NCBI GenBank assembly: GCA_034430215.1
Contig: DAOUFE010000013.1
Span: forward strand, 5,702-69,701
DNA: 64,000 bases
Direction of reading: 5' to 3'
Origin: Anaerolineaceae bacterium
GTDB taxonomy: Bacteria; Chloroflexota; Anaerolineae; Anaerolineales; Anaerolineaceae
In this document: positions 4,952 through 56,545 of the stretch, piece by piece
Position numbering within the stretch: position 1 is the first letter of the stretch
Layout of the letters: each line of letters begins with the position of its first letter
The notes under the pieces: model-generated
The model's input: the letters and a program-made list of their open reading frames with translations, nothing else
Told to the model about the DNA's origin: nothing
Database searches by the model: none
Made by a program: the position numbers and the translations under genes

Positions 4952-5599
4952 CTACAGATCCAATCTTTCAAAATGCTGTACCGATCTGCCATAGGCAACG
5001 GCGGTCAGCAGAGCGAACAATATGATCCCAACAATAAAAACCAGGGATTGCTGTAGGTAATACACGGCATTCGCCGTGTCCAGAGTAACCTTCCAGGTTG
5101 GGATGATATTTATCAGTACCTCAGACAAACCCACAAAGATCGTCATTGCGACACAGGAAACCAGATAGGGTGTGCCTGGTTTGTAAGCCGTTCGGTAGAA
5201 CATGGGCAGAAAAGTGATGTTAAAGATACCAAACATTATCAAGACTAACCCGAAGAAGGCGATATTCGCTTCCATGCCTGCGGGATTTTCAACCGGGAGA
5301 ATACGATATCGGAGGATAGCGAAGGGAATGCTCACGATCACCTGCAGCAATTCAAAGAGGAGAACCGTGAAAAATCGAGCTTTCACCGCATCCCTTTTCC
5401 TGATCGGCAATAAAACTGTAAAGAAAATATCATTGGTCACATTACCATTCAGAAATATAAAGAAAATACCCAGTGTCTGATAGAAAAATGCTACATAGTA
5501 GGGATAACTGGGGATCAGAAGCATTGCTGCCAGAGGAAGGAACAAATAACATGTCGGGTGAACCGATAATTTTAATTCTTTATAAATCAGGTTCTTCAT
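4952..5599 (-). CDS. ABC-2 type transporter permease
   Basis: 215-aa ORF with about 6 TM helices. Its start overlaps the stop of the upstream ATPase gene by 20 nt. Confidence 0.7.
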   Translation of the reverse strand: MKNLIYKELKLSVHPTCYLFLPLAAMLLIPSYPYYVAFFYQTLGIFFIFLNGNVTNDIFFTVLLPIRKRDAVKARFFTVLLFELLQVIVSIPFAILRYRILPVENPAGMEANIAFFGLVLIMFGIFNITFLPMFYRTAYKPGTPYLVSCVAMTIFVGLSEVLINIIPTWKVTLDTANAVYYLQQSLVFIVGIILFALLTAVAYGRSVQHFERLDL

Positions 5600-6446
5600 C
5601 TGCCTGCCTTCTTTCCGTGTAGATCATGATGGATTCCAGGTCAGCGGTGGTTACCTTGAAATCCTGGATATCCTGTACATCATTGCTTTGCAACATGCCT
5701 GTAAATTCACCTTTCCTCTCGCGATATCCGATGATCTTCCTCTTGAGCGATGGGGGGATTCGAGCCGTTTCACCTTTGATAATGCGATAAGAATTGAGAA
5801 ATGCATCTTTATCCTGGCTGGCAATGATCTCACCATTTTTCAGATAGGTGATGTCATCCGCATTCTTCTCCAGATCAGAAGTAATGTGCGTGGAAAAGAA
5901 GATCGAAGTGCCTTCTTTATCAACAATATCTGTAAATATATTCAGCAATTCATCGCGCGAAACCGGGTCGAGTCCCGTGGTCGGCTCATCCAGGATCAAC
6001 AATTCAGCATGATGAGATAGGGCAAGAGCTAATGCAAATTTGATACTCATCCCTTGCGAAAGTTGTTTGATCTTTTTATCCGGGTCCAAATCAAAGCGGG
6101 TGAGGTAATTTTGATAGATAGCTTCATCCCATTTCTTATAAAACCCGCGGTAAACATCCGTAATCGTTCGGATCTTGCTTTGTGAAAAATAGTTAGCTGC
6201 TCCGAGGATGAAAGAAATTCGCTGTTTGATCTCGAACTCATGCTCCTTAACATCCAGACCAAAAAATTGGATCGATCCACTATCCGGGTGCACCAGGTTG
6301 AGGATGGACTTCATGGTAGTCGTCTTCCCGGCTCCATTTTTCCCGATGAAACCCATGATCCTTCCCTGTTCCACAGAAAAAGACACATCCTTAAGGTGGA
6401 ATTTTTCATAATGCTTGTTCAAATTTTTTACGGTTAGTACTTCCAT
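5580..6446 (-). CDS. ABC transporter ATP-binding protein
   Basis: Walker A GKNGAGKTT, signature LSQGMSIKFAL and Walker B LLILDEPTTGLD. Confidence 0.9.
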   Translation of the reverse strand: MEVLTVKNLNKHYEKFHLKDVSFSVEQGRIMGFIGKNGAGKTTTMKSILNLVHPDSGSIQFFGLDVKEHEFEIKQRISFILGAANYFSQSKIRTITDVYRGFYKKWDEAIYQNYLTRFDLDPDKKIKQLSQGMSIKFALALALSHHAELLILDEPTTGLDPVSRDELLNIFTDIVDKEGTSIFFSTHITSDLEKNADDITYLKNGEIIASQDKDAFLNSYRIIKGETARIPPSLKRKIIGYRERKGEFTGMLQSNDVQDIQDFKVTTADLESIMIYTERRQADEEPDL

Positions 6447-6512
6447 ATTTTTCCTTTTTCAACAATAATGAAACAGCTTCGTTGTGCTACATTCCTTAAC
6501 GATGTCAATAAT

Positions 6513-6755
6513 TCATTCCTCTTCTTCCGATGGTTCCATGCTGGCTTCCAGGATTGCCATGAAACCCGGTTTTTTCTCAAGCAGGGTGGATGCTTTAATG
6601 ATCGCCAATCCCTGTTTCAGGTCGCCCAGCACAAGCAGCTTGTCACCTACCTGAATGTTAAAGTCACGCCTGGCTTCTGCAGGAATAACAATTTGACCTC
6701 TCTCACTGACGGTGATCGCACCGTAAAAACGTTTTCCTTTTGGGGGTTTTGCCAT
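6513..6755 (-). CDS. AbrB/MazE/SpoVT-family DNA-binding protein
   Basis: ITVSERGQIVIPAEARRDFNIQVGDKLLVLGD matches the SpoVT-AbrB looped-hinge helix fold signature. It is the first gene of a three-gene operon with the ABC-2 exporter. Confidence 0.8.
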   Translation of the reverse strand: MAKPPKGKRFYGAITVSERGQIVIPAEARRDFNIQVGDKLLVLGDLKQGLAIIKASTLLEKKPGFMAILEASMEPSEEEE

Positions 6756-6770
6756 CTTTCACCTCATGAC

Positions 6771-6800
6771 AAGATAAATCTTGTATACAAGATTTATCTT
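6771..6800. promoter_or_regulatory. perfect 30-bp palindrome, candidate operator
   Basis: aagataaatcttgta|tacaagatttatctt is an exact inverted repeat. It ends 16 nt upstream of the AbrB-like start codon and overlaps the predicted -10. Confidence 0.6.
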
Positions 6801-6824
6801 ACTATTGAGTAGGTATTCTGTCAA
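6796..6824 (-). promoter_or_regulatory. sigma70-type promoter for the AbrB/ABC-2 operon
   Basis: The minus strand reads TTGACA (6824-6819), a 17-nt spacer, then TAAGAT (6801-6796). Confidence 0.5.
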
Positions 6825-6851
6825 CATTCTCCAATCTCAAAAAGCGTCTGT

Positions 6852-6860
6852 TGGTATAAT
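6852..6860 (+). promoter_or_regulatory. extended -10 element (TGGTATAAT) upstream of the nitrilase-family gene
   Basis: TGn-TATAAT at 6852-6860, about 85 nt upstream of the 6944 start. No good -35 was seen. Confidence 0.3.
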
Positions 6861-6943
6861 TACTTCACAGGGTGGCCAGTGAAAATCAAGAAAACTCGAG
6901 TGACCGTTTCTCCCTTTAATAAAACTACACATAAGGAAAAAAG

Positions 6944-7780
6944 ATGGAATTACTCACTGCAGCTGCAATTTCAACTAAAAACTATATTGGTGAGCAAGGC
7001 AAAGCACTACAAACAATGGAAAACTGGCTTCAGCGCGCTTCTGAACAGGGATCAGAACTGGCTTTATTCCCCGAACTCAATGTCAGTGGATATATCCCCG
7101 CCCCCATTGCCGCTCAAATAGCTGAACCTGTTCCGGGACCTTCCACCGAGAAGATCATCCGGCTGGCAGAAAAATATCGCACGACAATCGCTTTTGGGTT
7201 GATCGAAAAAGAAAACAATAAATTATTTTGCACACATGTGCTGGTAAACGGAAATGGGATTCTGGGCAAACAACGAAAGATCCATGTGCCGGCTCATGAA
7301 CGACCTTTCTGGGGCGCAGGGGATGCCATTGAGATCATGGATATGGGAAAAGCAAACATTGGCATTGCTGTTTGTCGGGATGCTTTCTTTGACGAAATGA
7401 CCCGCACACTCTACTTTAAAGGCGCCGATATCGTTCTGATGCCTTTTGGGTACTACAACGTGCCGCGCAACCAATACCTCAAAGAGACGATTCATGGCAT
7501 GTCTCTGGTCAAATCAGCCTGGTCCAATGGTTTTTTTGAGCTTTTATGCAACAACGCAGAAGATCGCTCTGCCAATGCCTACGAGCCACACGGGAATAAG
7601 TTCCCTGGTTGGGCTGGCATTATCGATCCTTGGGGCATGGTTCTAGGGTTTGTGGAAGATGAAGGGAATAATGAATCCATGATCGTACGGAAGCTCGATC
7701 CTGCTGTTATGATTGACCGCCGCTCCCACCCCAATTTCCTTGCAAAGGAATTACGCCCAGCGTTGTATCAATTTGAATGA
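6944..7780 (+). CDS. carbon-nitrogen hydrolase (nitrilase superfamily)
   Basis: The Glu-Lys-Cys triad contexts are present: FPELNVSGY, GKQRKIHVP and IGIAVCRDAFF. Confidence 0.8.
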   Translation: MELLTAAAISTKNYIGEQGKALQTMENWLQRASEQGSELALFPELNVSGYIPAPIAAQIAEPVPGPSTEKIIRLAEKYRTTIAFGLIEKENNKLFCTHVLVNGNGILGKQRKIHVPAHERPFWGAGDAIEIMDMGKANIGIAVCRDAFFDEMTRTLYFKGADIVLMPFGYYNVPRNQYLKETIHGMSLVKSAWSNGFFELLCNNAEDRSANAYEPHGNKFPGWAGIIDPWGMVLGFVEDEGNNESMIVRKLDPAVMIDRRSHPNFLAKELRPALYQFE

Positions 7781-7821
7781 TTCCCAGAATATAAATTATT
7801 TGCTTCGATTTTCATAAAGGG

Positions 7822-7863
7822 AAAGCACCTCAATTTTGTGCAGATGAGGTGCTTTCATTTTTA
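7822..7863. terminator. bidirectional intrinsic terminator between convergent genes
   Basis: Perfect 11-bp stem aaagcacctca / tgaggtgcttt (7822-7832 and 7845-7855) followed by cattttt. Confidence 0.7.
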
Positions 7864-7898
7864 CCCATTAGAACCTGTCACCGTGTGGTCAGCCTGTG

Positions 7899-10208
7899 TC
7901 ACGGAAGCCAATCCAGTACTTTTCCTTTCAGGTTCATTACCGGGATGATCTGGCACGTATCTACCTGGATCAAAACCTGGGTATATCGTTGGTCTGGGAT
8001 TTTCCAGGAGAGGTCGACAAGCAGCCAGGCACCGTCAGGGCTCCAAACCATGTTGCGGATGTTGCCTTCACTATTCATTTCAATTAGCGTTTTGCGTTGA
8101 GAACCATCAGGTGTGAAGGCAAAAACGGTTTGTGTGCCAGCCGATTCATCGACCCAATTGAGTGCTAAACGTTTTCCATCTTCTGAGACGGCAATGGAAG
8201 TAGCAAGCTGGGGCACATTGAACAATGTAGAAGCCTCTCCAGTGAGTGGATCGATGATCTTCAAAACCGGACCATTTTCATCCATGGTCACATATAAAAT
8301 ACCCTGATCTGGCAACCACCCTTGCATGAGTTTTACTGGCTCAACGGTATTCAAAAGCTGTGCGCCAGTTCCATCCAGATTTGCCAGGAAGATATTAGGG
8401 CTCATGCCATCAGGAGTCCCCGTGAACCCAATCTGCTGCCCATCGGGTGACCAGAATAGCTGGGCAACACCTGAATTTGGTTCAACACCGGCAAGCGGTT
8501 CACTGACACCCGATTCAAAGTCGTATACCAACAGTTTGCCTTCTCCATTTGCGTAGACCATCATTTTTCTATCCGGCGATATGGATGCGTCAGCGCCATC
8601 ATCGATTAGCGGTTTGACCTCCGACCCATCCAGCCGGGTTAGCGAGAGGCGATTGGTTAATGTTTCCTCATCAAGCAGCTCAATCAAAACCATATCATTT
8701 AGCTCATCCGGGATAGGTAAAGGATCAGACAGAGAGGCATTCCATGCTTCCTCGGTAAGACAGACCGTTTGTTCAGGTTTGGCATCAGGGCTCATTGAGG
8801 AAGTGGTAGCGGGTGTCCATTCTACAAACCAGGGACCCTTGATCCGGGCAATGTATAGCGAAACAGTCAGGGTGACAGGACCTTCAGGCAGCCCACCATC
8901 GTAATTTATGCTCGACCAGAAAGATTGAACAGGGTCTGCTTCGTTGCCATCTTCGCTGCTGCCACCGCTAACGACGGAGTGTTCTGTGTCAACGATGGAT
9001 GCGTTCAAAATACCATCGGTAGACTCCATTTTGACAGTCAGACTGGCATTTCCACCCATTTCACTTACTTCTATGGATCGGATATGCAGGGTATGTCCGT
9101 CGATTTTCAGGTCCCGATTTACTTCATACACCTGATCTGGTTGGTGGTCAGAACCGGGGTCAAAGGTAATGCTGGCAGAAGTATTAAATCCTGCTTTGAT
9201 CGAGTTGATCACCAGCTGGGCAGATCCTGACGTAACCACACTGGAGGTTTTATAGCCAAACGCGGCACTCATTGGGTCTCCCTCATTCGGATCGATTGCC
9301 TCCAAAGAAGGTTCAAAGGTGATCTCCTGCCCGCGATTGTCAATGATGGTCACATCCTTCCGATCTATGGCAACCCAGGCTATGTTGGGATTATTCTGCC
9401 AATTCACACGTACCTGAACCAACTGACTATCCACTAATGGAATGACACTCTCGAGATTTATATTAATTCCATGATCTACATTAGCTTCGGGATTTGCGGA
9501 CTCCGGATTGGGGGTGGGTGATGTTTGGATACCAACCGGATAAATAGTCATTTCTGGAGGAGCGGGGATAAAAGAAAGGGATATTTCCCAATTCTCGGGT
9601 CCTGTTCCAACAGGAAGTGGATTCAAGCAAGGTAAAAGCAATGTTGCCTGATCGATATTTGTAGGGATTGCAGGGTAAGTATATTGCACCCTGTAGCCAG
9701 ATTCCCAGGTGGAATCGGTTAACCCTCCGGGAATCTGATAGATAGTTCCATCCGGCAGGTGTAATTCTGCTGCAGCGAAACAGATTTCAGCAATATTTCC
9801 ATCGGTTGAATTTGTATTGTCATTGAACGGTCCTTCGACACTATACGTGATGACGGTATGCTCCTGATCGAGCACTGCATTTTCCACCGTGACTGTATAT
9901 CCGTCCCGGGTATCAGAAACAGGTTCTTTCAGGATACGCAGCGTTGAAGTTTGATCGATCAATCCAATCCCCGGGATGAACCCCAATATTTTCCGAGTAG
10001 CTGAAGCTACTCCAGGTATGGCAAAGAATAGTGTAGCAACCGTAATGGCTGTCAAAAGGCCAGCCATGGTTAATTTTCTTTTAGGTTTCATAATGTTCAC
10101 TCTTTCCTTTTGAACTCTGGCTAAAATGCCCGGCCAGAGATTCACATCAGGTCTACTATGTTCCCGAGAAATTTCATCCAGCAAGCGATAAGGTCGGTTC
10201 TGGTTCAT
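7899..10208 (-). CDS. membrane-anchored putative anti-sigma factor with C-terminal TolB-like PD40 beta-propeller
   Basis: ATGA start/stop overlap with the sigma gene at 10205-10208. There is a single TM helix (LTMAGLLTAITVATLFFAIPGV) after a short cytoplasmic N-terminus. C-terminal repeats include SPDRKMMVY, WSPDGQQIGF, SEDGKRLAL, TPDGSQRKTL and WSPDGAWLLV. Confidence 0.6.
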   Translation of the reverse strand: MNQNRPYRLLDEISREHSRPDVNLWPGILARVQKERVNIMKPKRKLTMAGLLTAITVATLFFAIPGVASATRKILGFIPGIGLIDQTSTLRILKEPVSDTRDGYTVTVENAVLDQEHTVITYSVEGPFNDNTNSTDGNIAEICFAAAELHLPDGTIYQIPGGLTDSTWESGYRVQYTYPAIPTNIDQATLLLPCLNPLPVGTGPENWEISLSFIPAPPEMTIYPVGIQTSPTPNPESANPEANVDHGININLESVIPLVDSQLVQVRVNWQNNPNIAWVAIDRKDVTIIDNRGQEITFEPSLEAIDPNEGDPMSAAFGYKTSSVVTSGSAQLVINSIKAGFNTSASITFDPGSDHQPDQVYEVNRDLKIDGHTLHIRSIEVSEMGGNASLTVKMESTDGILNASIVDTEHSVVSGGSSEDGNEADPVQSFWSSINYDGGLPEGPVTLTVSLYIARIKGPWFVEWTPATTSSMSPDAKPEQTVCLTEEAWNASLSDPLPIPDELNDMVLIELLDEETLTNRLSLTRLDGSEVKPLIDDGADASISPDRKMMVYANGEGKLLVYDFESGVSEPLAGVEPNSGVAQLFWSPDGQQIGFTGTPDGMSPNIFLANLDGTGAQLLNTVEPVKLMQGWLPDQGILYVTMDENGPVLKIIDPLTGEASTLFNVPQLATSIAVSEDGKRLALNWVDESAGTQTVFAFTPDGSQRKTLIEMNSEGNIRNMVWSPDGAWLLVDLSWKIPDQRYTQVLIQVDTCQIIPVMNLKGKVLDWLP

Positions 10209-46963: not shown

Positions 46964-47000
46964 CCTTCCCCTAAATCCAGGTTTTGGATTTGGGGGAAGG
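46964..47000. repeat. strong 16-bp hairpin, possible terminator between convergent operons
   Basis: ccttcccctaaatcca / tggatttgggggaagg with one G-U position and a 5-nt loop. There is no clean U-tract on the plus strand and only a U-rich tract on the minus strand. Confidence 0.45.
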
Positions 47001-47071: not shown

Positions 47072-47797
47072 TTATTCCGTTGCACGTGTCTTTAATAAAT
47101 TAATCAGCACATCCAGAAATGGATTATTCATCGCAGTGGTTCGTGCAGTTGTGGTGGCTGTATCAGTTCCATCCGTCTGAGTGTCAGTACCTGGCATGAT
47201 GCCACCCATTCCCATATCATTGCCACTGGGCATACCCGCACCACCACCCATTCCGCCCGCCATACCACCTGGATCCCCAGCTCCTCTGCCCATATTACCA
47301 CCTGGGACTACCACATCACCACCTGGAAATCCCATATTATTCCCTGGCATTTGATCCATGGAAGCACCTGGAGTACTGCTAATACCTGGCCTAAAACCCA
47401 TAGTTACACCAAGATCACTGGCAATTGTTGTCATATCTTGATCGGAGAGATCCATTGCATTGATCGCCTGTAATTGTGCAGTGGTCAATGTCTCCTGGAT
47501 CTGTTGATAGAGTGCTTCCATTTCTGCATCTGAAATAGTGTCACTGTTGCTGAAGACTTTGACACCTTTCCATAAAGGCAACAGTTCCTTTGCCTGTTCA
47601 GCAGTTACAGCATTATCAGTACCTTCGAGTTTCAAAATGCCGATCGCCAGTTTAGTTTCTAGCGTCATGGTTGACGCATCTATCGTACCAGAAGTCTGGG
47701 CAATTACCTTGTTACCTAAAAAAGTAATATAGACAAATACACCAGCAGCAACCACAATCACAGCCGCAATAACCATCCAGATATATTTCTTTTTCAT
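47072..47797 (-). CDS. membrane-anchored protein with Gly/Met-rich low-complexity C-terminal region
   Basis: N-terminal TM helix, a helical domain, then PGNNMGFPGG ... GGMAGGMGGGAGMPSGNDMGMGGIMPG. It is the last gene of the exporter operon. Confidence 0.6.
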   Translation of the reverse strand: MKKKYIWMVIAAVIVVAAGVFVYITFLGNKVIAQTSGTIDASTMTLETKLAIGILKLEGTDNAVTAEQAKELLPLWKGVKVFSNSDTISDAEMEALYQQIQETLTTAQLQAINAMDLSDQDMTTIASDLGVTMGFRPGISSTPGASMDQMPGNNMGFPGGDVVVPGGNMGRGAGDPGGMAGGMGGGAGMPSGNDMGMGGIMPGTDTQTDGTDTATTTARTTAMNNPFLDVLINLLKTRATE

Positions 47798-47828
47798 CTT
47801 CTACTTTCCTTTTCTTATTTCCTTTTGC

Positions 47829-49070
47829 TTATTCATGTCTGAGTGCGACAATAGGATCCAACTGTGCAGCTTTGTGAGCCGGCAGGTATCCAAAGAAAAT
47901 GCCAATGAGCGCAGCCGAGCAGAATGACAAAATAATGGAGAAACTGGAAATTACTGTACGCATTCCGCTCAATGATCCAAACAACCAGGAGCCAACCACC
48001 CCTGCAATTACACCAATTACTCCTCCGAGTAAACTTAACATCAGAGCTTCGAGCAAGAACTGGGTTTGAATATCACCTGGAGTAGCGCCTACTGCCTGCC
48101 GTAATCCAATTTCACGCGTGCGCTCAGTGACACTTACCAGCATGATATTCATGATCCCAATGCCACCCACAATCAGGGAAACACCAGCCACCCATCCCAA
48201 CAAAGTGCGGAAAGATGAAGTGGTGGATTCCTGGGTCTCGATAATGTCATCCTGTGTGGTGATATTGAAATCCGCTGTATCCACTGTTACCTCGTGCCTG
48301 TTAACCAGCAGCAAGGTGATCTGTTGGACCACTGCTTCCATCTGGTCTTTATCTTTTACGGAGACAATGATCATCCGTACATCGTCACCCATGATACGGG
48401 CGAATTGAGATGGTGTGAATTTCTTAAACACGACTGAAATGGGGGTGTAGATCTGTTCATCGTAATCTGTACCTGAAGATAATCCTTTGGGGGCAAGAAC
48501 CCCAATCACGGTCAGTTTAGTATTGCCAACTGTAATATATTGACCAATTGGATCGGTACCCGAATCGCCAAATAATTCATCTGAAATAGATGAACCCAAC
48601 ACCACTACTTTACGGGTGTTGTCCATCTCCTCCTGGGTGAAGTATCGTCCGGTGGCAACCTCTACTTCACGCACGGTAGGGTAATCAATCGTAGTACCAA
48701 CTACAGTGACATCAGAAAGTGTTATTCCATCAAATTTGATAGTTTCACTGGCTGATTGTTCCACTGAAACTCCCGCAATACCATTGATTTTTTCACTAAT
48801 GGCGGTTGCATCATCAAATTTCAATCCACCCGAAGAACTGTTGGGTCCCATGGAAGGACCTCCCCGGGTGAAAGCCGTCGAAATGAATATCAGGTTGGAG
48901 CCCAGCCCATTGATGGCTTCAGAAATAGTAGCCTCAGTACCTGCGCTGACCGCAATCATAATGATGACCGCGGCAACACCAATGATGACACCCAGCATGG
49001 TCAATAGAGAACGTAATTTGTTGGAAAGCAGACTTTTCCAGGCTACTTTCAAAACTTCACGGTAGTTCAT
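47829..49070 (-). CDS. MacB/FtsX-type ABC transporter permease
   Basis: 413 aa with TM1, a large extracytoplasmic domain, then 3 TM helices (FtsX/MacB architecture). ATGA overlap with the ATPase gene. Confidence 0.85.
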   Translation of the reverse strand: MNYREVLKVAWKSLLSNKLRSLLTMLGVIIGVAAVIIMIAVSAGTEATISEAINGLGSNLIFISTAFTRGGPSMGPNSSSGGLKFDDATAISEKINGIAGVSVEQSASETIKFDGITLSDVTVVGTTIDYPTVREVEVATGRYFTQEEMDNTRKVVVLGSSISDELFGDSGTDPIGQYITVGNTKLTVIGVLAPKGLSSGTDYDEQIYTPISVVFKKFTPSQFARIMGDDVRMIIVSVKDKDQMEAVVQQITLLLVNRHEVTVDTADFNITTQDDIIETQESTTSSFRTLLGWVAGVSLIVGGIGIMNIMLVSVTERTREIGLRQAVGATPGDIQTQFLLEALMLSLLGGVIGVIAGVVGSWLFGSLSGMRTVISSFSIILSFCSAALIGIFFGYLPAHKAAQLDPIVALRHE

Positions 49071-49834
49071 TCTGATGCTCCTTCCGATGCCACTTTTTGA
49101 GTTTCACCATGCACAGATTTCAAAATAGGATTTCGGTTTGTTCTTTCCATAGCCAATTTACCATCACGGATAAGGATGATCCTTCCTGCGTGTTGTGCAA
49201 TATCAGGTTCGTGGGTAACCATCACAATGGTACGTCCTCGATCATTAAGTTCATGCAAGATATCCATGATCTCAATACTGGAACGTGTATCCAGGTTGCC
49301 GGTAGGCTCATCCGCCAGGATCAAAACCGGGTCATTTATAAGAGCCCTGGCAATGGCAACACGCTGTTGCTGCCCGCCTGACATCTGGTTGGGAAGGTGA
49401 TCCGCCCGCTCTTTCAGACCCACGCTTTCCAGTGCAGCCAGCACCTTTTGCTTTCGTTCTTCCATAGGAATATTACCCTCCCTCTGATACATCATCGGAA
49501 GCATGACATTTTCCAATGCGGTTTGACGAGGAAGAAGGTTATACGATTGAAAGACAAATCCCAACTGGCGGCTTCGAATGAACGCCAGTTCTTTCCGGCT
49601 ATACTCACTCACATCTTCCCCTGCAAGGATATAGTGACCACCTGAAGGTCTATCCAGGCAAGCCAGAATATTGAGGAGAGTGCTTTTTCCTGAACCGCTG
49701 GGACCCATAATGGCAACAAATTCACCTTCATGGATCTGGATGTTAAGGTCATCCAGTGCAGTCACTCTGTACTCGCCCTCGCCATAAATTTTCGTTAATC
49801 CAATCGTCTCGATGATCGTATGATTCTCGCTCAT
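49067..49834 (-). CDS. MacB/LolD-type ABC transporter ATP-binding protein
   Basis: Walker [10 protein letters not shown], signature [15 protein letters not shown] and Walker [12 protein letters not shown]. Confidence 0.9.
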
Positions 49835-51276
49835 GATTGCGTCTCCAAAATACCTGTCGTAACCACATCACCCTCTTTCAGCCCAGATGTGACAACGGTA
49901 TAAGTCGAATCGGATAGGCCAATTTCGACAACAGTCAGAGTAAGTTTGCCATTGGCACCCACTACAAATACACCATATTGATCATCCCCCAGGTCATGCA
50001 CCGCTTCCACAGGCACCAGGAGCGCATTTTCTGCCTCACCACCAATAACTTCAACGGAGGCATTCAATCCTTCGATCACAACCACAGAATCATTTTCATT
50101 GGATAGGTCAAGCTGGATGACCCCCTGTACTACCTGATAACCATTCATTGTCTGCAGGGTTGGATTGATCTCTGTTACTGTTCCTTCAAACACCTTATTG
50201 GGAATGGCATCAAAAGTGACTTTAGCAGAAGCACCTTCAGAAACTTTATCCAGATCGGTTTCATCCACCCAGAACTCTACTTCAGGGTGTACCAGGTCAG
50301 CGATCGTGATGAAAGAGCCTGTTCCGACCTCGTCACCTACTTCGCCCTCGATGGAAAGGATTGTGCCATCGAATGGGGCGTAGATGGTAGTGCCTTTCAA
50401 GGTGGCAAATGCCTTGTCATAGGCAATCTGTGCTGCGGCTACACTTGTCTCAGCAATTGCCAGGTCAGAAGGATCAATCCCATTATTTGCTTGTAGTTCA
50501 GCTAATTTATCTTCTGCTTCTTTGACTGCTGCTTCTGCCAGAGTTAAGGTGGCCTGCGATGAATCGATCTCATATTGGGTATATCCAGCGCAATATTGAT
50601 AGGTGGCATATGCCTGTTCGACTTTCGTTTTTGCCGGGAGAATAACTTTTAAGTAATAATCCTGATTGGTGTTGCTTTGATCCAGAGCGTTCAGGGCTTC
50701 TTGAGCTTTCATATATGCCGCGTAATAAACATCTGTGGTGTCCTGGTCACAGCGTGCCATCCCTGCTGTCAATACGTTAGATTGAGCTTCCTCGAGTTCC
50801 TTTTGCGCATTTGCCAAAGTAAGGGCTGCATTTGCCAGGTTGGTCTCTGCACTATTTTTTACTTCTTCCAGATTTTGATTGGCAGCTTTAAGATCCAATT
50901 CAGCCGTAGTCAGGGCAGATTGCAGGGTACTGATGTCAGCAATTCTTGCCAATTCCTGTCCTTCGGTCACTTTGTCGCCCACAGCTACAGAGATGGAAGC
51001 CACAGTTCCTGATGCAGTAAAGCTTAAGTTTGTTTTTTGACCGCCTACCAGTGAACCGGTGCCGCTTGCGGAGAGTGTCAATGTGCCACGTCGAACCTGA
51101 GCAGTCTGGTAACCAGTTTGTTCAGTGGTATTAGCAATAGATGATCTTTTCAAAAGGATATAGCCTAACCCTGTGGATGCCAGAACTGCAACCATAATAA
51201 CTGGGATGAGTATCCTCTTATTAACCTTTCTTAATTTCATACGCTCTTTCATAGGTCTTGAAACTCCTTTATCCAA
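49831..51276 (-). CDS. HlyD/MFP-type periplasmic adaptor, paralog 3
   Basis: N-terminal TM anchor, biotinyl-lipoyl-like segments flanking a long coiled coil, and a C-terminal beta-barrel. Paralogous to the two upstream genes. Confidence 0.8.
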   Translation of the reverse strand: MDKGVSRPMKERMKLRKVNKRILIPVIMVAVLASTGLGYILLKRSSIANTTEQTGYQTAQVRRGTLTLSASGTGSLVGGQKTNLSFTASGTVASISVAVGDKVTEGQELARIADISTLQSALTTAELDLKAANQNLEEVKNSAETNLANAALTLANAQKELEEAQSNVLTAGMARCDQDTTDVYYAAYMKAQEALNALDQSNTNQDYYLKVILPAKTKVEQAYATYQYCAGYTQYEIDSSQATLTLAEAAVKEAEDKLAELQANNGIDPSDLAIAETSVAAAQIAYDKAFATLKGTTIYAPFDGTILSIEGEVGDEVGTGSFITIADLVHPEVEFWVDETDLDKVSEGASAKVTFDAIPNKVFEGTVTEINPTLQTMNGYQVVQGVIQLDLSNENDSVVVIEGLNASVEVIGGEAENALLVPVEAVHDLGDDQYGVFVVGANGKLTLTVVEIGLSDSTYTVVTSGLKEGDVVTTGILETQS

Positions 51277-51297
51277 ATGGGTAACAAAAAAGTGCCT

Positions 51298-52752
51298 CTA
51301 TTCAGAAACCTTGCTGGTGATGATGAGCTCTCCATCGCGTAATCCATCAATAATTTCTATATAACTGGCATTCTGAAATCCAACTTCTACAAAACGTTTT
51401 TCGGGCGTTCCGTCTGAATTCAATACATAGACAAATGATTTACCTTCATCGTTCTGATAAACTGCAGTTACAGGCGCAAGCAGCACCCTGCTCGCCTCTC
51501 CACAGGTAAGGTATACGGTTCCGTTCATGCCCAGCGATAAATATTTTCCAGGCATCAGCATAGGATCCTGCAAGGTAACCACCCCTGTTGCCACAGAGGT
51601 ATTGAACCCTGACATCAATTCAGGTGAAACCTGAGTGACTGTTCCCGTGTACACCCGGTCAGATACTGCAGATAGAACCACCTGGGCGCTGCACCCTTCC
51701 TGTAATGCTTGATAATCTGATTCATCAACTGAAACATTCATTACCAGTTGCGATAGGTCTGCCATTCTTATGAGCGTAGAAGTATCTACACTGTCACCAA
51801 CCGCTGCATTAATTGCCAGAATAACTCCGTCGGTTGGTGCAACCAACGTTGCATCTGCCAGATCGTTCTGTGCTTTGGTAAGCTGTAATTGCGCGTTTTC
51901 AAGTTTAGCCTGGGCAATTTCGACCGCAATGGGATCTACTCCATTGTGTTCAAGCAAATATTGATAATCTTTTTCTGCCAGTTCCATCTTGGCTTTTGCA
52001 AGCATCCATTTTGCTTCAGACTCATCAGTTTCTGTTTCTGTATACCCTGAGCAATATTGCCAGTTGAGGTACGCTGCATCACGGGCATTCTGCAGGGGAG
52101 TCAAATTTGTGAGAATATAGTCTTTTCCGTATCCGGTTTTCGGGTTTTCCAGTTCATCCTCCCAAACCTGGGCTTTTCGACGATAATCCCAGTATTCTGC
52201 AAGGAATTTGTCAGAGATCTCACTGCTGCAACGAACTGTTCCACTGGTCACATGGTCTTTATCCGCTTCTTCAAAAGCTTCCTGTGCTTCCGCTTGATCG
52301 AGAAGAGCCTGCGCCAGAGTGGTTTCGCCACTGCTGAGTAATGTAGTCAGTTCATTCTGTGCATCAAGAACTGCCTTCTCTTGCTGCTCAAGTTTCACCT
52401 GCAAAGAATTCAATTCGCTGGAAATTGCCAGAACATCCCCTGCTTTCACCTCATCGCCAATTTTGACATTCAGGGTCGCCAGCGTACCAGGGGTGGTAAA
52501 AGCAAGATCAATGGTTTTTGCAGCACTTAAGGAGCCTGAACCGGTAGCCGTTACCGTGATATCACCGCGTAAAGCAGGGGTTGTTTGATAGGCAGTCTGG
52601 GTAACTACATTTGTCGTTTGGTTCCCAACGGGAAAGATACAAAGCACAATAACAATGACCAGTATTCCTCCTGAAGAGATCAATGCGGGGATGCGGTATT
52701 TTTTCACAAAGGTTTTAACTGCCTGGAAAAAAGTTTTCATGGGTTCATCCAT
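51298..52752 (-). CDS. HlyD/MFP-type periplasmic adaptor, paralog 2
   Basis: Same architecture as paralog 3. It starts 2 nt after the stop of paralog 1. Confidence 0.8.
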   Translation of the reverse strand: MDEPMKTFFQAVKTFVKKYRIPALISSGGILVIVIVLCIFPVGNQTTNVVTQTAYQTTPALRGDITVTATGSGSLSAAKTIDLAFTTPGTLATLNVKIGDEVKAGDVLAISSELNSLQVKLEQQEKAVLDAQNELTTLLSSGETTLAQALLDQAEAQEAFEEADKDHVTSGTVRCSSEISDKFLAEYWDYRRKAQVWEDELENPKTGYGKDYILTNLTPLQNARDAAYLNWQYCSGYTETETDESEAKWMLAKAKMELAEKDYQYLLEHNGVDPIAVEIAQAKLENAQLQLTKAQNDLADATLVAPTDGVILAINAAVGDSVDTSTLIRMADLSQLVMNVSVDESDYQALQEGCSAQVVLSAVSDRVYTGTVTQVSPELMSGFNTSVATGVVTLQDPMLMPGKYLSLGMNGTVYLTCGEASRVLLAPVTAVYQNDEGKSFVYVLNSDGTPEKRFVEVGFQNASYIEIIDGLRDGELIITSKVSE

Positions 52753-52754
52753 TT

Positions 52755-54182
52755 TTATTGGCTCATTGTGGGTACCATTCCTGTAGAGACAATATCACCC
52801 ACATTCAAACCACTCGTTATTTGTATGTACGTCGAATCGGATAAGCCCACTTCCACCGTATGTAATCGAAGTGTTCCATCGTCATCGATCACAAAAACGG
52901 CATATTCTCCATCACCCAGGTCGTGTACAGCTTCAACAGGGGCTACAACAGCATCTTTTACTTCTGAAGAAATAATCTCAACCCCGGCATTCAATCCAAG
53001 GGGAATAGTCTGAAAATCTACCGTAGTGGATGGCTCCAATTCAATCAAACCCTGAGCGGTTTGAACCATGTTGATATTTACCAACTGAGGTTCGATCTGA
53101 ATCAGTGTGCCGGTGAATATATAATCTGGCAAGGCATCGAAAATCACTTCTACGCTGCTGCCTGTAGTAAATAATGGCAAATCTGATTCATCTACATTCA
53201 CCCGGACAAACGGATTGCTTAAATCTGATATGGTGATGAACAGCGATGTGTCCACCAACGCCCCTTCTTCTGCAGCCAGGTAGGTAACCACACCATCCAT
53301 CGGGGCTGTAAGGGTGATCCCATCCAGTATCGCTTGTGCTTCTGTCAATTTATCTTGTGCTTCGGTGACTTTTGCTTCAGCTAATTGCAGTTCGAGCGGG
53401 TCAATTCCAGAGCCGTCTTTAAGCGTGTTGTACCTGAGTTCTGCAGATTTTTGAGCTGCGTCAGCCAGTTCAAGGTTGGCTTGCGCTTCTTCTTTTTCAC
53501 CACTGGTATAAGAAATGCAATAATTGTAGTTTGCCACGGCGGTGTCATACCGGCTCTTTGTTTCGATATACTGGGCGCTGCCTTCGGTCAATTCTTTCAG
53601 TTTATTGAATAAGTTTTCTACTGAAGCTGCATACCCTCTGGTAACCGTGTCACTGCAGCGTGAATATGAAGTATGTTGTGCCTCAGTCAAAGCTATCTGA
53701 TAATCTTCCTTAGCAGTCACCCAATCCTGGTATGCCTGTGCCAGAGTAACATCGGCATTCTTTTGCAGGTCATCCAATTCCTTTTGAGCTTCCAATAATG
53801 CCAGCTTTGCACTGGAGACATTCACTTTGAGTGTTTCTGACCCTTCGATTCTGGCTAAAACTTCACCAGCTTTCACCTTGTCCCCAAGCTTTACGTCCAG
53901 CTCAGTTAAGATACCTTGCGTAGGAAAATTCAAATCTACTGAATTACGGGTGATAAGAGTCCCAGAGCCATTGATTGAAACACGGACATCGCGCTGCAGA
54001 ACTTTCGCAGTTTGATAGGTGGTACCCGCTTTATTTCCAGAATTCGCAAGAGAACTAGAAGAACCCTTAAGAAAATAAAACGCTGTTCCCGCGCCAACCA
54101 ACAGTGCTCCACTGATGAGAATGATCCAGAAACGCTTGCTTTTAGGTTTTTTAATTTTTTCCAGTACTCCAGAAAACTTCAT
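52755..54182 (-). CDS. HlyD/MFP-type periplasmic adaptor, paralog 1
   Basis: Same architecture. It is the first gene of the six-gene operon. Confidence 0.8.
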   Translation of the reverse strand: MKFSGVLEKIKKPKSKRFWIILISGALLVGAGTAFYFLKGSSSSLANSGNKAGTTYQTAKVLQRDVRVSINGSGTLITRNSVDLNFPTQGILTELDVKLGDKVKAGEVLARIEGSETLKVNVSSAKLALLEAQKELDDLQKNADVTLAQAYQDWVTAKEDYQIALTEAQHTSYSRCSDTVTRGYAASVENLFNKLKELTEGSAQYIETKSRYDTAVANYNYCISYTSGEKEEAQANLELADAAQKSAELRYNTLKDGSGIDPLELQLAEAKVTEAQDKLTEAQAILDGITLTAPMDGVVTYLAAEEGALVDTSLFITISDLSNPFVRVNVDESDLPLFTTGSSVEVIFDALPDYIFTGTLIQIEPQLVNINMVQTAQGLIELEPSTTVDFQTIPLGLNAGVEIISSEVKDAVVAPVEAVHDLGDGEYAVFVIDDDGTLRLHTVEVGLSDSTYIQITSGLNVGDIVSTGMVPTMSQ

Positions 54183-54448
54183 GCGTCCCTCCGGAACATA
54201 TTTCCTTTGGAAAAGAGCATATTGCGCTCTCTTCTGTGAATTTAAGAGCTTTAAAACCTATATGATATTAATCAATGGTTATTCAGTTTTTCTTTAGATG
54301 GAATGAATTATTTAAGTAATATCATTTCAGCCCGCAAAGGTAATCTATCTCACCTCTAAATCAAATCTTAATAAATTTGTGATACCCTGTAGTCCAGATG
54401 TATTCTAAAGATACGGTCTGTAATAGAATAAATAAAAGCAGGTAAACC

Positions 54449-55135
54449 ATGGCTTATTCCGTTTTGGTTGTAGATGATCAATCCAGTGTTCGGCAGTTAC
54501 TTCGGGAGTATTTGGTAGAGCAGGGATTTCATGTATCCACAGCTGCAGACGGGCAGTCTGCTTTATACATGACCCGGCACGACCCACCCGATCTTATTCT
54601 TCTGGACATTATGATGCCTAAAATGGATGGATACCAGTTCTTGCAGCAATACCGGAAAGAGCGGCAGACCCCTGTCATTATCATCACCGCACGGGAGGAA
54701 GAGACAGACGCTGTGTTGGGGTTGGATTTAGGCGCAGATGACTATGTGGTAAAACCTTTCAGGATGCGCGAGCTTCTGGCGCGCATTCGGGCAGTGCTTC
54801 GCCGCACACAAGAACCCGGTAAAAAATCTGAAATATTGCGAGCTGCTGATATCACCCTTGATGAAATTACCCATACTGTCACTGTTCATGAAATTCCTGT
54901 TAATCTGACCCCTATTGAATTCAACATGTTGGCAACTTTGATGCGCAGCCCAGGCCGGGTTTTTACCCGAGATGAATTGGTAAATTGCCTGATGGATTGC
55001 GGCTTTTCAGGGTTGAGTAGCACACTCAATGTTCATATTCGAAACCTGCGTACAAAAATTGAAACCGATCCCGAGAATCCACATTATATAGAAACGGTTT
55101 TTGGTGTAGGCTATCGCTTTACAAAATCTGGATAA
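54449..55135 (+). CDS. OmpR/PhoB-family response regulator
   Basis: Receiver domain (VLVVDDQ ... LILLDIMMPKMDG ... KPF) plus a winged-helix output (TVFGVGYRF). Confidence 0.9.
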   Translation: MAYSVLVVDDQSSVRQLLREYLVEQGFHVSTAADGQSALYMTRHDPPDLILLDIMMPKMDGYQFLQQYRKERQTPVIIITAREEETDAVLGLDLGADDYVVKPFRMRELLARIRAVLRRTQEPGKKSEILRAADITLDEITHTVTVHEIPVNLTPIEFNMLATLMRSPGRVFTRDELVNCLMDCGFSGLSSTLNVHIRNLRTKIETDPENPHYIETVFGVGYRFTKSG

Positions 55136-55141
55136 TTCTTT

Positions 55142-56545
55142 ATGAGGAAGACGTTATACTGGAAACTTGCTCTTGCTTTTATGTTCGTTGCAGTCATTGC
55201 AATTGTTTTAATCGCGATCTTTATTCGTATTACCAATGTTGACCGCCTCACCAAGTTGATCACAGAGCAACAGGGGAGCAGCCTGCAGGCAAGCATGGCG
55301 GAATATTACGCCATTACGGGTTCATGGCTGGGTGTAAAGGAATACTGGCAAACTGCCCAAATGCGGCCTACCCAATCCTCTGATTTGACGCAAGAACCAA
55401 ATACGAACAATCCCTTCCCACCTGAAGGACGTGATCGTCGAAATTTCTTTGGTCTGGTGGATGCCGATAGAGTTGTTCTGGTATCGGTTGATCCAAAATA
55501 TCCTGAAGGTAGTACTCTGCCTGAAGAGATGTTGAAAAATGGCTTTCCTATTACGGTGGATGGTCAGCAGGTGGGAACGATCATCAATGCGAATACTCCT
55601 CCAGGTTTCCTCCCAGAAGAAAATCTTTTTCTGACACGAACTAATCAGGCATTGCTGCTGGGGGTGGCTGGTGCGCTACTCATCGCATTAGTGGTCGGAT
55701 TTGTGTTAGCGCGCACATTGACACGCCCATTACGTGATCTCACTCAGGCAGCTCAAAGGATTGCCGATGGAAATCTGGAGCAGCAGGTAAAAGTGAATTC
55801 AAAGGATGAGATCGGTGATCTGGCAATCGCTTTCAATCAGATGAGTCACGAAGTGGCCCATCAATCGTTACTTCGTAAACAAATGACTGCTGATATCGCT
55901 CATGACCTGCGAACGCCATTGACAGTCATCGCCGGGTATATTGAATCCATGCAGGATGGAGTTCTCCAACCTACCCCCGAAAGATTGGCGTTGATCTATT
56001 CTGAGATTGAACGTCTGCAAAACCTTGTAGGCGACCTGCGTATGTTGTCGCAGGCAGATGCAGGAGAGTTACCCTTGAACCCGCAGAAAATAGAGCCTGC
56101 CTCGTTGCTAGAAAGGTCAGCCGCACTCTTTCAACATCAAGCTGAAAAACAGCAGATCACTCTTGAAGTCCAGGTTCCGGAGGTTCTACCAGAAATCTTT
56201 GTGGATGAAGCCCGCATGCTGCAGGTATTCGATAACCTGATCAGCAATGCTTTCCGGTATACACCCGCAGGGGGAAGGATCTCACTTTCGGGAAAGCTCC
56301 AGAATGACAGAGTAGTGTTAAGCGTAAATGATACCGGTTCGGGTATTTCAATTGACGAACAGCCGTATATTTTTGATCGCTTCTATCGGGCGGATAGATC
56401 CCGGCATGCTGAAAATGGGGAGTCAGGACTTGGCCTGGCAATTGTGAAGGCATTGATTGAAAGCCAGAATGGGAAGGTATGGGCTGAGTCAAAACCGGAA
56501 CATGGAACCACGATCTATATGGAATTCCCTGTGAATAATTCATAA
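55142..56545 (+). CDS. sensor histidine kinase (TM-sensor-TM-HAMP-HisKA-HATPase)
   Basis: H-box IAHDLRTPLT, N-box NLISNAFRYT, and G-boxes DTGSGI and GESGLGLAIV. Confidence 0.9.
   Translation: MRKTLYWKLALAFMFVAVIAIVLIAIFIRITNVDRLTKLITEQQGSSLQASMAEYYAITGSWLGVKEYWQTAQMRPTQSSDLTQEPNTNNPFPPEGRDRRNFFGLVDADRVVLVSVDPKYPEGSTLPEEMLKNGFPITVDGQQVGTIINANTPPGFLPEENLFLTRTNQALLLGVAGALLIALVVGFVLARTLTRPLRDLTQAAQRIADGNLEQQVKVNSKDEIGDLAIAFNQMSHEVAHQSLLRKQMTADIAHDLRTPLTVIAGYIESMQDGVLQPTPERLALIYSEIERLQNLVGDLRMLSQADAGELPLNPQKIEPASLLERSAALFQHQAEKQQITLEVQVPEVLPEIFVDEARMLQVFDNLISNAFRYTPAGGRISLSGKLQNDRVVLSVNDTGSGISIDEQPYIFDRFYRADRSRHAENGESGLGLAIVKALIESQNGKVWAESKPEHGTTIYMEFPVNNS

Follow-up and report, generated by a model that had tools for sequence, protein, structure and literature searches.

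The MacB-type pumps described so far, MacAB, YknXYZ and Spr0693-95, are modelled with a single adaptor that forms hexamers, as the original prediction for this locus had stated (PMC5985334, PMC8277102). MacAB itself assembles with MacA6:MacB2 stoichiometry (PMC5985334), and reviews list two open questions for such pumps: why adaptors should be hexameric on a dimeric MacB, and what adaptors do in cells that have no outer membrane (PMC4338810, PMC5985334). TriA and TriB, which are 36% identical and both required (PMC4338810, PMC13328181), are the only multi-adaptor pump mentioned in the literature searched, which included a review from 2026. Our full-text literature search found no published account of a three-adaptor MacB/ABC pump.

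The locus analyzed here lies in a 64,000-nucleotide stretch of DNA (the window) from an Anaerolineaceae bacterium represented by a metagenome-assembled genome, a host described as a filamentous member of the Chloroflexota. The region 47072-54182 holds six genes on the minus strand, coding for three adaptors of the HlyD/MacA type (A1, A2 and A3), a MacB-type pump split into ATPase and permease, and an anchored protein rich in Gly. The six open reading frames (475, 484, 481, 255, 413 and 241 aa) are real and lie on the minus strand where the original prediction placed them, and the intergenic gaps of 2, 21, -4, -4 and 31 nt are correct for the frames as listed. For A3, an ATG at 51252 (M9 of the listed frame) has an AAGGAG Shine-Dalgarno sequence and agrees with a 473-aa database entry; it is most likely the true start, which would make A3 473 aa long and the A2-A3 gap 45 nt. 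As predicted, the locus is one closely packed unit of six genes, in which three genuine adaptor paralogs accompany one MacB-type pump.

A GC-rich hairpin at 46964..47000 on the minus strand, 72 nt past the last gene and at the junction with the convergent upstream operon, is the likely transcript end. It has 15 base pairs (-24.2 kcal/mol), is not followed by a T-run and is absent from the list of the consensus terminator scan. Within the operon, consensus scans for internal promoters and terminators were no richer than shuffled sequence (12 versus 12.7 and 6 versus 6.5). We further note that the operon is patchy in the genus, being found in three of seven genomes, one of them with only a contig-end fragment (A1 and the regulator), which marks it as accessory.

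The ABC ATPase (255 aa, 49067..49834, minus strand) is of the MacB/LolD/FtsE type, and its gene is separate from that of the permease, with a 4-nt overlap on either side. It carries an ABC_tran domain (E 3e-35) and matches the first 229 model positions of MacB NF007826 (E 7.5e-76); its best NCBIfam matches are the MacB N-terminal domain, DarD, LolD and FtsE. The permease (413 aa, 47829..49070, minus strand) comprises TM1, a large extracytoplasmic MacB_PCD domain (PF12704, E 2.3e-43, residues 21-252) and an FtsX C-terminal TM bundle (PF02687, E 1.6e-21, residues 294-405). It matches solved MacB (5gko/5nik) with an E-value of about 5e-63 over residues 3-412 and Spr0695 (5xu1) with 3.5e-42. Judged from sequence, the pump is a MacB-type (type VII, mechanotransmission) ABC transporter, with permease and ATPase both of that type. 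It falls outside MacB sensu stricto (NF007826, 966-bit cut-off), in which ATPase and permease are fused into a single polypeptide, the two separate genes here scoring 255.8 and 247.5 bits.

A1 (475 aa, 52755..54182, minus strand), a MacA/HlyD-type membrane fusion protein encoded by the first gene of the operon, has a short basic N-terminal tail and one TM helix (residues 20-38), and scores 129.9 bits on TIGR01730 (cut-off 94.9) and E 7e-21 on HlyD_D23. A2 (484 aa, 51298..52752, minus strand; 152.1 bits on TIGR01730) begins 2 nt past the A1 stop; it is the most divergent paralog and has the longest tip module, about 59 aa between two cysteines. A3 (481 aa as listed, 49831..51276, minus strand) scores 142.1 bits, and its stop overlaps the ATPase start (ATGA). 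All three thus pass the curated TIGR01730 cut-off of 94.9 with 130-152 bits, and all contain HlyD_D23/HlyD_3. Their 63-73 bits on TIGR02971 fall below the 129-bit DevB cut-off, which sets them apart from the DevBCA type. Pairwise alignment gives 34-39% identity.

The AF2 model of A3 (pLDDT 87.5) contains all four MacA-type domains, namely the MP, beta-barrel, lipoyl and long helical domains, and a Foldseek search with it returned MacA structures as best matches (9qgy_G, E 7e-23; 5nik_D, E 4e-22). Each of the three N-termini has a 19-residue hydrophobic stretch after a short basic tail (mean Kyte-Doolittle 2.1-2.7), and none has a lipobox; the adaptors thus combine the MacA-type four-domain plan with an N-terminal transmembrane helix. 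MacA E231 is strictly conserved and takes part in ring contacts (PMC8277102). Its equivalent in A3, E339, is invariant across 53 homologues. In the HMMER alignment, two further conserved contact residues of the EcMacA barrel domain differ, Y276 pairing with a Val and T293 with a conserved Asn of the adaptor, and the lipoyl gating loop is four residues shorter than that of MacA and lacks its Gln.

The best homologues of the locus come from Anaerolineaceae, as do near-identical contigs, in keeping with the earlier guess of a Chloroflexota-type host. Three tandem adaptors occur in about 34 of 201 sampled Anaerolineaceae genomes (18 genera), and the pump operon is colinear across many genera. In the adaptor tree, the paralogs form three position-specific clades with support of 100/99 (A1), 100/99 (A2) and 100/100 (A3). 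Recent adaptor duplication was considered and is ruled out by the trees together with the dN/dS values. Compared with a congeneric genome, dN/dS is 0.08-0.10 for all three adaptors, indicating strong purifying selection (A1 0.079 and A2 0.081; the permease 0.030). That the adaptors are redundant tandem duplicates of no special meaning, either recent or decaying copies, is very improbable. Adaptor duplication does recur in this pump family, genus g250 having a pair of independent origin and G526/G491 an additional pair, and some genomes (G491, G449) carry apparently frameshifted copies; against this, paralog identity is only 34-39% and the clades are orthologous over 18 genera, and the reading is already contradicted by the trees and dN/dS.

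The A3 clade also contains, nested inside it, the single adaptors of reduced operons. This placement suggests that A3 is the core adaptor and that a single gain added A1 and A2, which were lost jointly. The three paralogs of the original prediction are therefore not equivalent: A3 appears as the ancestral core and as the sole adaptor of derived operons, while A1 and A2 are present or absent together. No sampled intact operon had A1+A3, A2+A3 or A1+A2 alone. As a separate observation, the cultured Longilinea arvoryzae has a sister operon reduced to A3 alone.

We consider it somewhat better than an even proposition that the locus encodes a stress-inducible MacB-type exporter of a TolC-less cell, with a mixed (A1A2A3)2 ring around a permease dimer. 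In this model the permease and ATPase would form a 2:2 MacB-like dimer, and the adaptor collar would be a heterohexamer holding A1, A2 and A3 twice each. A3, translationally coupled to the ATPase, would be the ancestral core, to which A1 and A2 were added once as an accessory pair. Each permease protomer in the solved MacA6-MacB2 complex faces three non-equivalent adaptor positions, and three specialised paralogs would match these. A hetero-oligomeric ring, as originally proposed, is strengthened by the finding that the paralogs are ancient, fixed in position, under purifying selection and locked in arm length: both helical arms are constant, at 63 and 70 aa, in 54/54 sequences of the three adaptor clades. 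Equal arm length could, however, merely reflect the indel intolerance of coiled coils. The mixed ring remains the best reading of these sequence patterns, but it would not be structurally obligatory, since the nested single-adaptor operons show that an A3-type adaptor can serve the pump alone.

The length of the tip module, by contrast with that of the arms, is specific to each clade, at 49 (A1), 59 (A2) and 54 aa (A3), with 59.4 +/- 1.0 in 18 A2 orthologues. The helical tip region is also where the paralogs differ most, with identities of 0.23-0.31 between clades versus 0.35-0.46 within a clade. Such differences would suit alternative collars, in which each paralog forms a homo-hexamer on the same permease-ATPase dimer, giving three variants with tips for different substrates or wall layers. 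The sufficiency of A3-type adaptors in reduced operons points the same way, as does the fact that the solved MacA, YknX and Spr0693 adaptors are all homo-hexamers (PMC8277102). We nevertheless regard this arrangement as unlikely. A1 and A2 do not occur on their own with the pump and are lost jointly, the arms are length-locked across the clades, and a single predicted promoter serves three genes that are closely packed or translationally coupled, so that the adaptors cannot be chosen independently.

A still less probable arrangement has A3 as the sole pump adaptor and A1 and A2 as a separate membrane-anchored heteromer, kept in the operon for co-regulation only and having another job, for instance as a scaffold across the wall or as a partner of the kinase in signalling. 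The joint gain and loss of A1 and A2, with A3 retained beside the pump, would agree with this, and so would the MP domain of A2, the most divergent of the three (0.31-0.33 identity to the other paralogs). Yet A1 and A2 keep the full four-domain MacA plan under purifying selection, including the transporter-contacting MP and barrel domains, and within each clade these pump-proximal regions are as conserved as the rest of the adaptor. Their arms have exactly the same length as those of A3, and genes of the A1 and A2 clades were recovered solely within these pump operons. We also considered whether A1 and A2 serve other, adaptor-less pumps of the genome. This is ruled out, as each of the three further MacB-type permeases has a neighbouring partner of its own and A1 and A2 are thus not needed elsewhere.

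Returning to the mixed ring, its helical arms would build a single tube across the wall zone. Three different tip modules, each of them probably held by a disulfide, would cap this tube. A stronger version, which we hold as possible but short of even odds, is an obligate, position-specific 2+2+2 ring that would resolve the six-to-two symmetry mismatch of MacB-type pumps, with the three disulfide-stapled tips forming a cap in place of an outer channel. A3 would then be the subunit that touches and activates the permease, with A1 and A2 in the two remaining non-equivalent positions, and the heterotypic tip cap would suit a multilayered, TolC-less envelope. Specialised interfaces are not evident from the sequences, however, as only one clade-specific fixed residue emerged at an 80% threshold.

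Searches of the host genome, which is 99.6% complete, gave no match to TolC/OEP (PF02321) or Omp85/BamA (PF01103); both searches matched seven of 14 control genomes, those with an outer membrane. The atypical envelope suspected from the window is therefore supported, the genome being without TolC and BamA homologues. The role of long adaptors in such a cell had been called puzzling; this is indeed a known open question, but it is not peculiar to this locus, as YknX and Spr0693 are solved precedents. Purely by analogy with YknXYZ, Spr0693-95 and AS-48EFGH, the substrate would probably be a membrane-active peptide or amphiphile extracted from the membrane's outer face.

The last gene of the operon (47072..47797, minus strand) encodes an anchored accessory protein of 241 aa, with an N-terminal anchor, a conserved helical domain of about 85 aa, a Gly-rich disordered linker and a conserved C-terminal amphipathic helix. 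It has no Pfam or NCBIfam match, profile searches against PDB and Pfam returned only low-complexity noise, and its AF2 model from a five-sequence alignment (pLDDT 49) was too poor for a fold search. The gene stands last in every complete three-adaptor or single-adaptor operon recovered from this subfamily. A lipobox Cys is nearly invariant in its relatives and absent in the protein itself. Of its predicted Gly/Met-rich character, the Gly-richness is conserved across the lipoprotein family, while the Met-richness (7%) is confined to this genus. A copper or silver role for the protein was rejected, as Met makes up 2-5% of 12 relatives versus 7% here and there is no His/Cys motif.

Divergent from the pump operon are genes for an OmpR-family response regulator (54449..55135, plus strand; Response_reg E 1e-33, Trans_reg_C E 6e-24) and a sensor histidine kinase (55142..56545, plus strand) with two TM helices, an extracytoplasmic loop, HAMP, HisKA and HATPase_c. 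These domain searches confirm the OmpR-type two-component system first noticed beside the operon. The best NCBIfam match of the kinase is BaeS (E 2.7e-82), aligned over its full length (residues 2-466); at 277 bits it lies below the equivalog cut-offs of 603 (NF007837) and 500 (NF012163). At least 15 related loci, with single and three adaptors alike, have the response regulator next to the pump operon.

OmpR/PhoB-family regulators bind direct-repeat operators, and an inverted pair of predicted TTTAGA-N5-TTTAGA operators flanks both divergent promoters. Site 2 (TCTAAAgaaaaACTGAA, 54282..54298, minus strand) is made up of two directly repeated hexamers 11 bp apart and occupies the position of the -35 box in the predicted promoter of the adaptor operon; the -10-like hexamer of this promoter, TATCAT, identified by consensus match, lies 14 nt downstream (54262..54267, minus strand). 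All 17 orthologous intergenic regions contain site 2 with one to four mismatches to TCTAAATCAAATCTAAA, and nearly all have a TATGAT-like hexamer 10-15 nt past it; shuffled sequences reached three or fewer mismatches to TCTAAATCAAATCTAAA in 0.2% of trials. Site 1 (TTAAGATTTGATTTAGA, 54355..54371, minus strand) is the inverted twin of site 2 and faces the regulator-kinase genes. It has one mismatch to the consensus, is kept in 17/17 loci and lies 73 bp from site 2 in 11 of them. Control of the pump by the two-component system, suggested originally from gene orientation, is thus supported by an operator pair conserved at both divergent promoters in 17/17 loci. We envisage that the BaeS-like kinase would sense an envelope insult and the regulator would switch on both promoters, the inducing signal of the pump operon being assigned purely by analogy. 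A search for further regulon members gave only one other good operator match in the genome, inside an ORF on contig C6, which is probably due to chance.

Compared with known systems, the locus resembles E. coli MacAB-TolC (PDB 5NIK, 9QGY) in its MacB_PCD and FtsX permease and in its MacA four-domain adaptors with an N-terminal TM helix. MacA is the best match in both sequence and fold, and a hexameric collar on a dimeric pump would be expected as in MacAB-TolC. Unlike that system, the locus has three adaptor paralogs instead of one, separate ATPase and permease genes, and a genome without TolC and Omp85. The helical domain is longer and bears a tip module bracketed by Cys residues. The Gln gating loop is absent, and the operon encodes a further component that is anchored or a lipoprotein.

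YknWXYZ of Bacillus and Spr0693-0694-0695 of S. pneumoniae are MacB-type pumps of single-membrane bacteria that have a MacA-like adaptor all the same, and the split layout seen here is that of YknYZ and Spr0694-95. By analogy with them, protection against membrane-active peptides is the likely role. YknWXYZ further shares the presence of an accessory component (YknW there, the anchored protein here); the sixth gene, without a Pfam match, is not a Yip1-family YknW, and a Yip1 gene occurs in another MacB-type operon of this genome, on contig C12. Both systems differ in having one homo-hexameric adaptor.

In its regulation, the locus parallels the BaeSR-controlled mdtABCD and the two-component-controlled MacABC of S. 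maltophilia, an OmpR-type system being divergent beside the pump. The kinase is BaeS-like over its full length but scores 277 versus 603 bits, and the TTTAGA-N5-TTTAGA motif was derived in this analysis. The operator pair provides a testable regulatory circuit for a group that is abundant in anaerobic digesters and sediments and has almost no genetics.

That a pump may need different adaptor paralogs has its published precedent in TriABC-OpmH of P. aeruginosa (PDB 6VEJ). The 36% identity of TriA and TriB is close to the 34-39% found here, and the two play non-equivalent roles in one hexamer. Three conserved and distinguishable adaptors offer a handle on both open questions, as each non-equivalent position could be separately tagged, deleted or mutated, an approach that TriA and TriB have provided for RND pumps; A3-only sister operons (including that of Longilinea arvoryzae) and independent adaptor duplications supply natural controls within the family. 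In a trimeric RND pump each protomer offers two positions, which TriA and TriB fit, a parallel to the three proposed here. TriC, however, is a trimeric RND protein that uses proton-motive force and works with two adaptors (3+3) and an outer-membrane channel, whereas the present pump is of the dimeric ABC type, without an outer channel and with three adaptors in a putative 2+2+2 arrangement.

The minus-strand pump operon (47072-54182) encodes three adaptors, A1 (52755-54182, 475 aa), A2 (51298-52752, 484 aa) and A3 (49831-51276, 481 aa as listed), followed by an ABC ATPase of the MacB/LolD/FtsE type (49067-49834, 255 aa), a permease with MacB_PCD and FtsX domains (47829-49070, 413 aa) and a last gene (47072-47797, 241 aa). 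These six open reading frames lie exactly where the original prediction placed them, with the same lengths and, as listed, the same intergenic gaps of 2, 21, -4, -4 and 31 nt. The gene identities it assigned also hold. A1, A2 and A3 each match HlyD_D23 and HlyD_3 and score 130, 152 and 142 bits, respectively, against the TIGR01730 adaptor subfamily model, above its curated cut-off of 94.9 bits, and the permease can be aligned along its whole length to solved MacB (E about 5e-63) and also aligns with Spr0695. Pairwise alignment of the three paralogs gives 34-39% identity, and each has a short basic N-tail and a single hydrophobic helix. The start of A3 is probably the ATG at 51252, 24 nt downstream of the listed TTG (51276), because an AAGGAG ribosome-binding site precedes this codon and the start agrees with a 473-aa database entry; the A2-A3 gap would then be 45 nt.

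The order A1-A2-A3-ATPase-permease-last gene is found again in many Anaerolineaceae genera. A survey of how widespread such operons are, suggested along with the original prediction, covered 201 evenly sampled Anaerolineaceae genomes and recovered at least three tandem adaptor matches (E <= 1e-45) in 34 of them, from 18 genera, with the matches head-to-tail in a single stretch wherever coordinates were checked. A maximum-likelihood tree of 78 adaptors, with which a smaller tree agrees, resolves three position-specific clades with support of 100/99 (position 1), 100/99 (position 2) and 100/100 (position 3). The three positions are joined in one clade (98/96), and basal single-adaptor systems of other families and Caldilineaceae fall outside it. 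The tree shows that the adaptor triplication of the Anaerolineaceae originated within the family. We further note that the operon is missing in four of seven sampled genomes of the window's genus (G002-G005) and is thus an accessory trait, with gain or loss over short evolutionary distances, and that genus g267 contains both single-adaptor and three-adaptor operons.

Between the window and a congener, dN/dS is 0.079 for A1, 0.081 for A2 and 0.096 for A3, similar to that of the ATPase (0.064). Within each clade, the MP strands, the barrel and the C-terminal MP half are as conserved as the remainder of the adaptor. Judged by these patterns, none of the three adaptors looks freed from transporter contact. 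We regard redundancy without meaning among the three copies as extremely improbable, and the assembly of A1 and A2 into a separate structure as distinctly improbable. A role for A1 and A2 in serving orphan pumps is ruled out, since the genome's other MacB-type pumps each have their own partner: a single adaptor (contig C27), a short adaptor (C6) and a Yip1-ATPase-CARDB-permease set (C12). The last of these, on the minus strand at 5356-10041 of locus L050 (G000:C12:19000-31000), combines an ATPase and a permease with a Yip1 (YknW-like) protein and a 586-aa CARDB/Ig-like protein; no HlyD-type adaptor is found in this operon, and the Ig-like protein may stand in for one.

Operons with a single adaptor, from several Anaerolineaceae including the cultured Longilinea arvoryzae, sit within the position-3 clade and share the two-component system, the ATPase, the permease (66-70% identical) and the last gene with the three-adaptor form. 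A moderately supported permease tree agrees with this nesting. The simplest reading of these sequences is that A3, whose translation is coupled to that of the ATPase, is the ancestral core adaptor, and that A1 and A2 arose once and were lost together at least twice. Intact operons with only A1 and A3, A2 and A3, or A1 and A2 are not found in the 201-genome sample; apparent two-adaptor cases fall at contig ends, have an A3 that seems frameshifted (G449), reflect a recent duplication of independent origin (genus g250) or consist of an ambiguous pair (G020). In the g250 genomes (G438, locus L037; G531, locus L039) the duplicated adaptors belong to the same pump subfamily, and the copies flank either the pump (adaptor-ATPase-permease-lipoprotein-adaptor) or the lipoprotein gene. 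Two further genomes, G526 (L028, C7:32000-50000) and G491 (L029, C2), carry a five-adaptor variant in which a position-1-type and a position-3-type adaptor are added as a pair and the permease is relocated, in the order A1-like, A3-like, permease, A1, A2, A3, ATPase, last gene. Adaptor multiplication thus recurs in this pump family. The inner three adaptor genes of G491 are broken into several ORFs by frameshifts or assembly errors. A few kb upstream of the single-adaptor operon of L. arvoryzae (DF967972.1, L034), three tandem 37-residue genes (1755-2348) adjoin a membrane protein resembling MamF/MmsF.

In the AF2 model of A3 (pLDDT 87.5), MP, lipoyl and beta-barrel domains accompany a long helical domain whose ascending arm (residues 113-175) leads into a two-helix tip module (176-229), from which a descending arm (230-299) returns. 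The best fold match of the model is MacA in the assembled pump (9qgy_G, E 7e-23; 5nik_D, E 4e-22), and the residue equivalent to MacA E231, described as strictly conserved and as contributing to the ring contacts (PMC8277102), is invariant in 53 homologues. The gating loop differs from that of MacA in being four residues shorter and without the Gln. Arm length is fixed at exactly 63 and 70 residues in 54/54 sequences of the three clades, at a between-clade identity of only about 0.3 in this region, and tip module length is characteristic of position (49 +/- 1.8 aa at position 1, 59.4 +/- 1.0 aa at position 2 and 53.9 +/- 0.7 aa at position 3). In-register arms with three distinct conserved tips would match the needs of a single three-subunit tube, an argument that is supportive and not decisive because coiled coils resist indels anyway. 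The alternative, that the paralogs form three alternative homo-hexamers, is a credible but rather unlikely reading of the same adaptors. Two cysteines bracketing the tip module (C176/C229 in A3, C176/C222 in A1) are also invariant in the 53 homologues. Since both occur together in the Anaerolineaceae subclade and are missing together in basal relatives and in the genome's other adaptor, the pair suggests an extracytoplasmic disulfide staple.

The Chloroflexota-type host is borne out by best homologues in Anaerolineae/Chloroflexota and by an Anaerolineaceae-labelled contig whose proteins are 87-98% identical to those of the window. Searches of the window's genome (3.28 Mb, 99.6% complete) found neither TolC/OEP-family nor Omp85/BamA matches, while the same searches matched 7/7 outer-membrane-bearing control genomes; the adaptors therefore cannot bridge to a TolC-type duct. 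Filamentous Chloroflexota are likewise reported to be missing outer-membrane biogenesis genes and to have multilayered envelopes (bioRxiv 10.1101/2025.08.19.671072). The role of long adaptors in such an envelope, first proposed to be unclear, is a puzzle that is already known and has solved precedents without an outer membrane in YknX and Spr0693, which form hexamers like MacA (PMC8277102, PMC5985334).

Relatives of the last gene close every complete operon recovered for this pump subfamily. They have in common a conserved helical domain (~85 aa), a linker rich in Gly, a conserved C-terminal amphipathic helix and a lipobox cysteine, in place of which the window's genus has an uncleaved anchor. 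The description of this protein as Gly/Met-rich thus stands for glycine, whereas Met-richness is confined to the window's genus, and a copper-binding role is for that reason not supported. Profile searches and structure prediction assign it no family or fold, with no Pfam match (the Yip1 family of YknW included) and no detectable homology to YknW or YbjP. By analogy, the protein is best viewed as a component of a fourth kind, whose function would compare with that of YknW or of YbjP, a lipoprotein seen on MacAB-TolC according to the title of PDB entry 9QGY.

Induction through the divergent OmpR-family regulator (54449-55135, +) and HAMP/HisKA kinase (55142-56545, +), as originally suggested, is supported by the intergenic region, with binding inferred. 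The kinase is BaeS-like along its entire length and scores below the BaeS equivalog cut-off. Alignment of 17 orthologous intergenic regions, from three-adaptor and single-adaptor operons, reveals two inverted 17-bp sites in 17/17, each built from TTTAGA hexamers repeated in the same orientation 11 bp apart (consensus TTTAGATTTGATTTAGA), with 0-4 mismatches to the consensus and a spacing of exactly 73 bp in 11/17 loci. Direct repeats 11 bp apart are the geometry typical of OmpR/PhoB-type regulators, and shuffled sequences reach <=3 mismatches in 0.1-0.2% of trials. In the window, the putative operator sites lie at 54355-54371, facing the regulator-kinase genes, and at 54282-54298, on the pump side. 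In nearly all loci, a putative -10 hexamer resembling TATGAT lies 10-15 nt beyond the pump-side site (TATCAT at 54262-54267 here). This arrangement suggests that the regulator-kinase genes are autoregulated. A generic promoter and terminator scan within the operon performed no better than chance; a strong hairpin (-24 kcal/mol) is predicted 72 nt past the last gene. In one genome (G008, locus L013, C21, 6174-6611) the sites are 338 bp apart, as against 73 bp in most loci, with two inserted copies of a ~50-bp GC-rich element (GGGGGACC.ATCCCCCG.CCCCTTCCCGATTCGGGACGGGGAGCCGCTCTGC) between them.

Judged from the analogous systems YknXYZ, Spr0693-95 and AS-48EFGH (PMC5985334), the first substrates to consider would be amphiphiles or membrane-active peptides. 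In solved MacAB-TolC, a MacA hexamer sits over one MacB dimer (PMC5985334), so each permease protomer would meet three non-equivalent adaptor positions, and three specialised paralogs, two copies each, would fit them. We lean slightly towards this mixed-ring model, taken together with the remaining description of the pump. Neither full-text literature search nor reviews up to 2026 yielded a published account of a three-adaptor ABC pump. The sole multi-adaptor pump named in that literature is TriAB, whose adaptors are 36% identical and both required (PMC4338810, PMC13328181); similarly, its two paralogs match a trimeric RND pump in which each protomer offers two positions.
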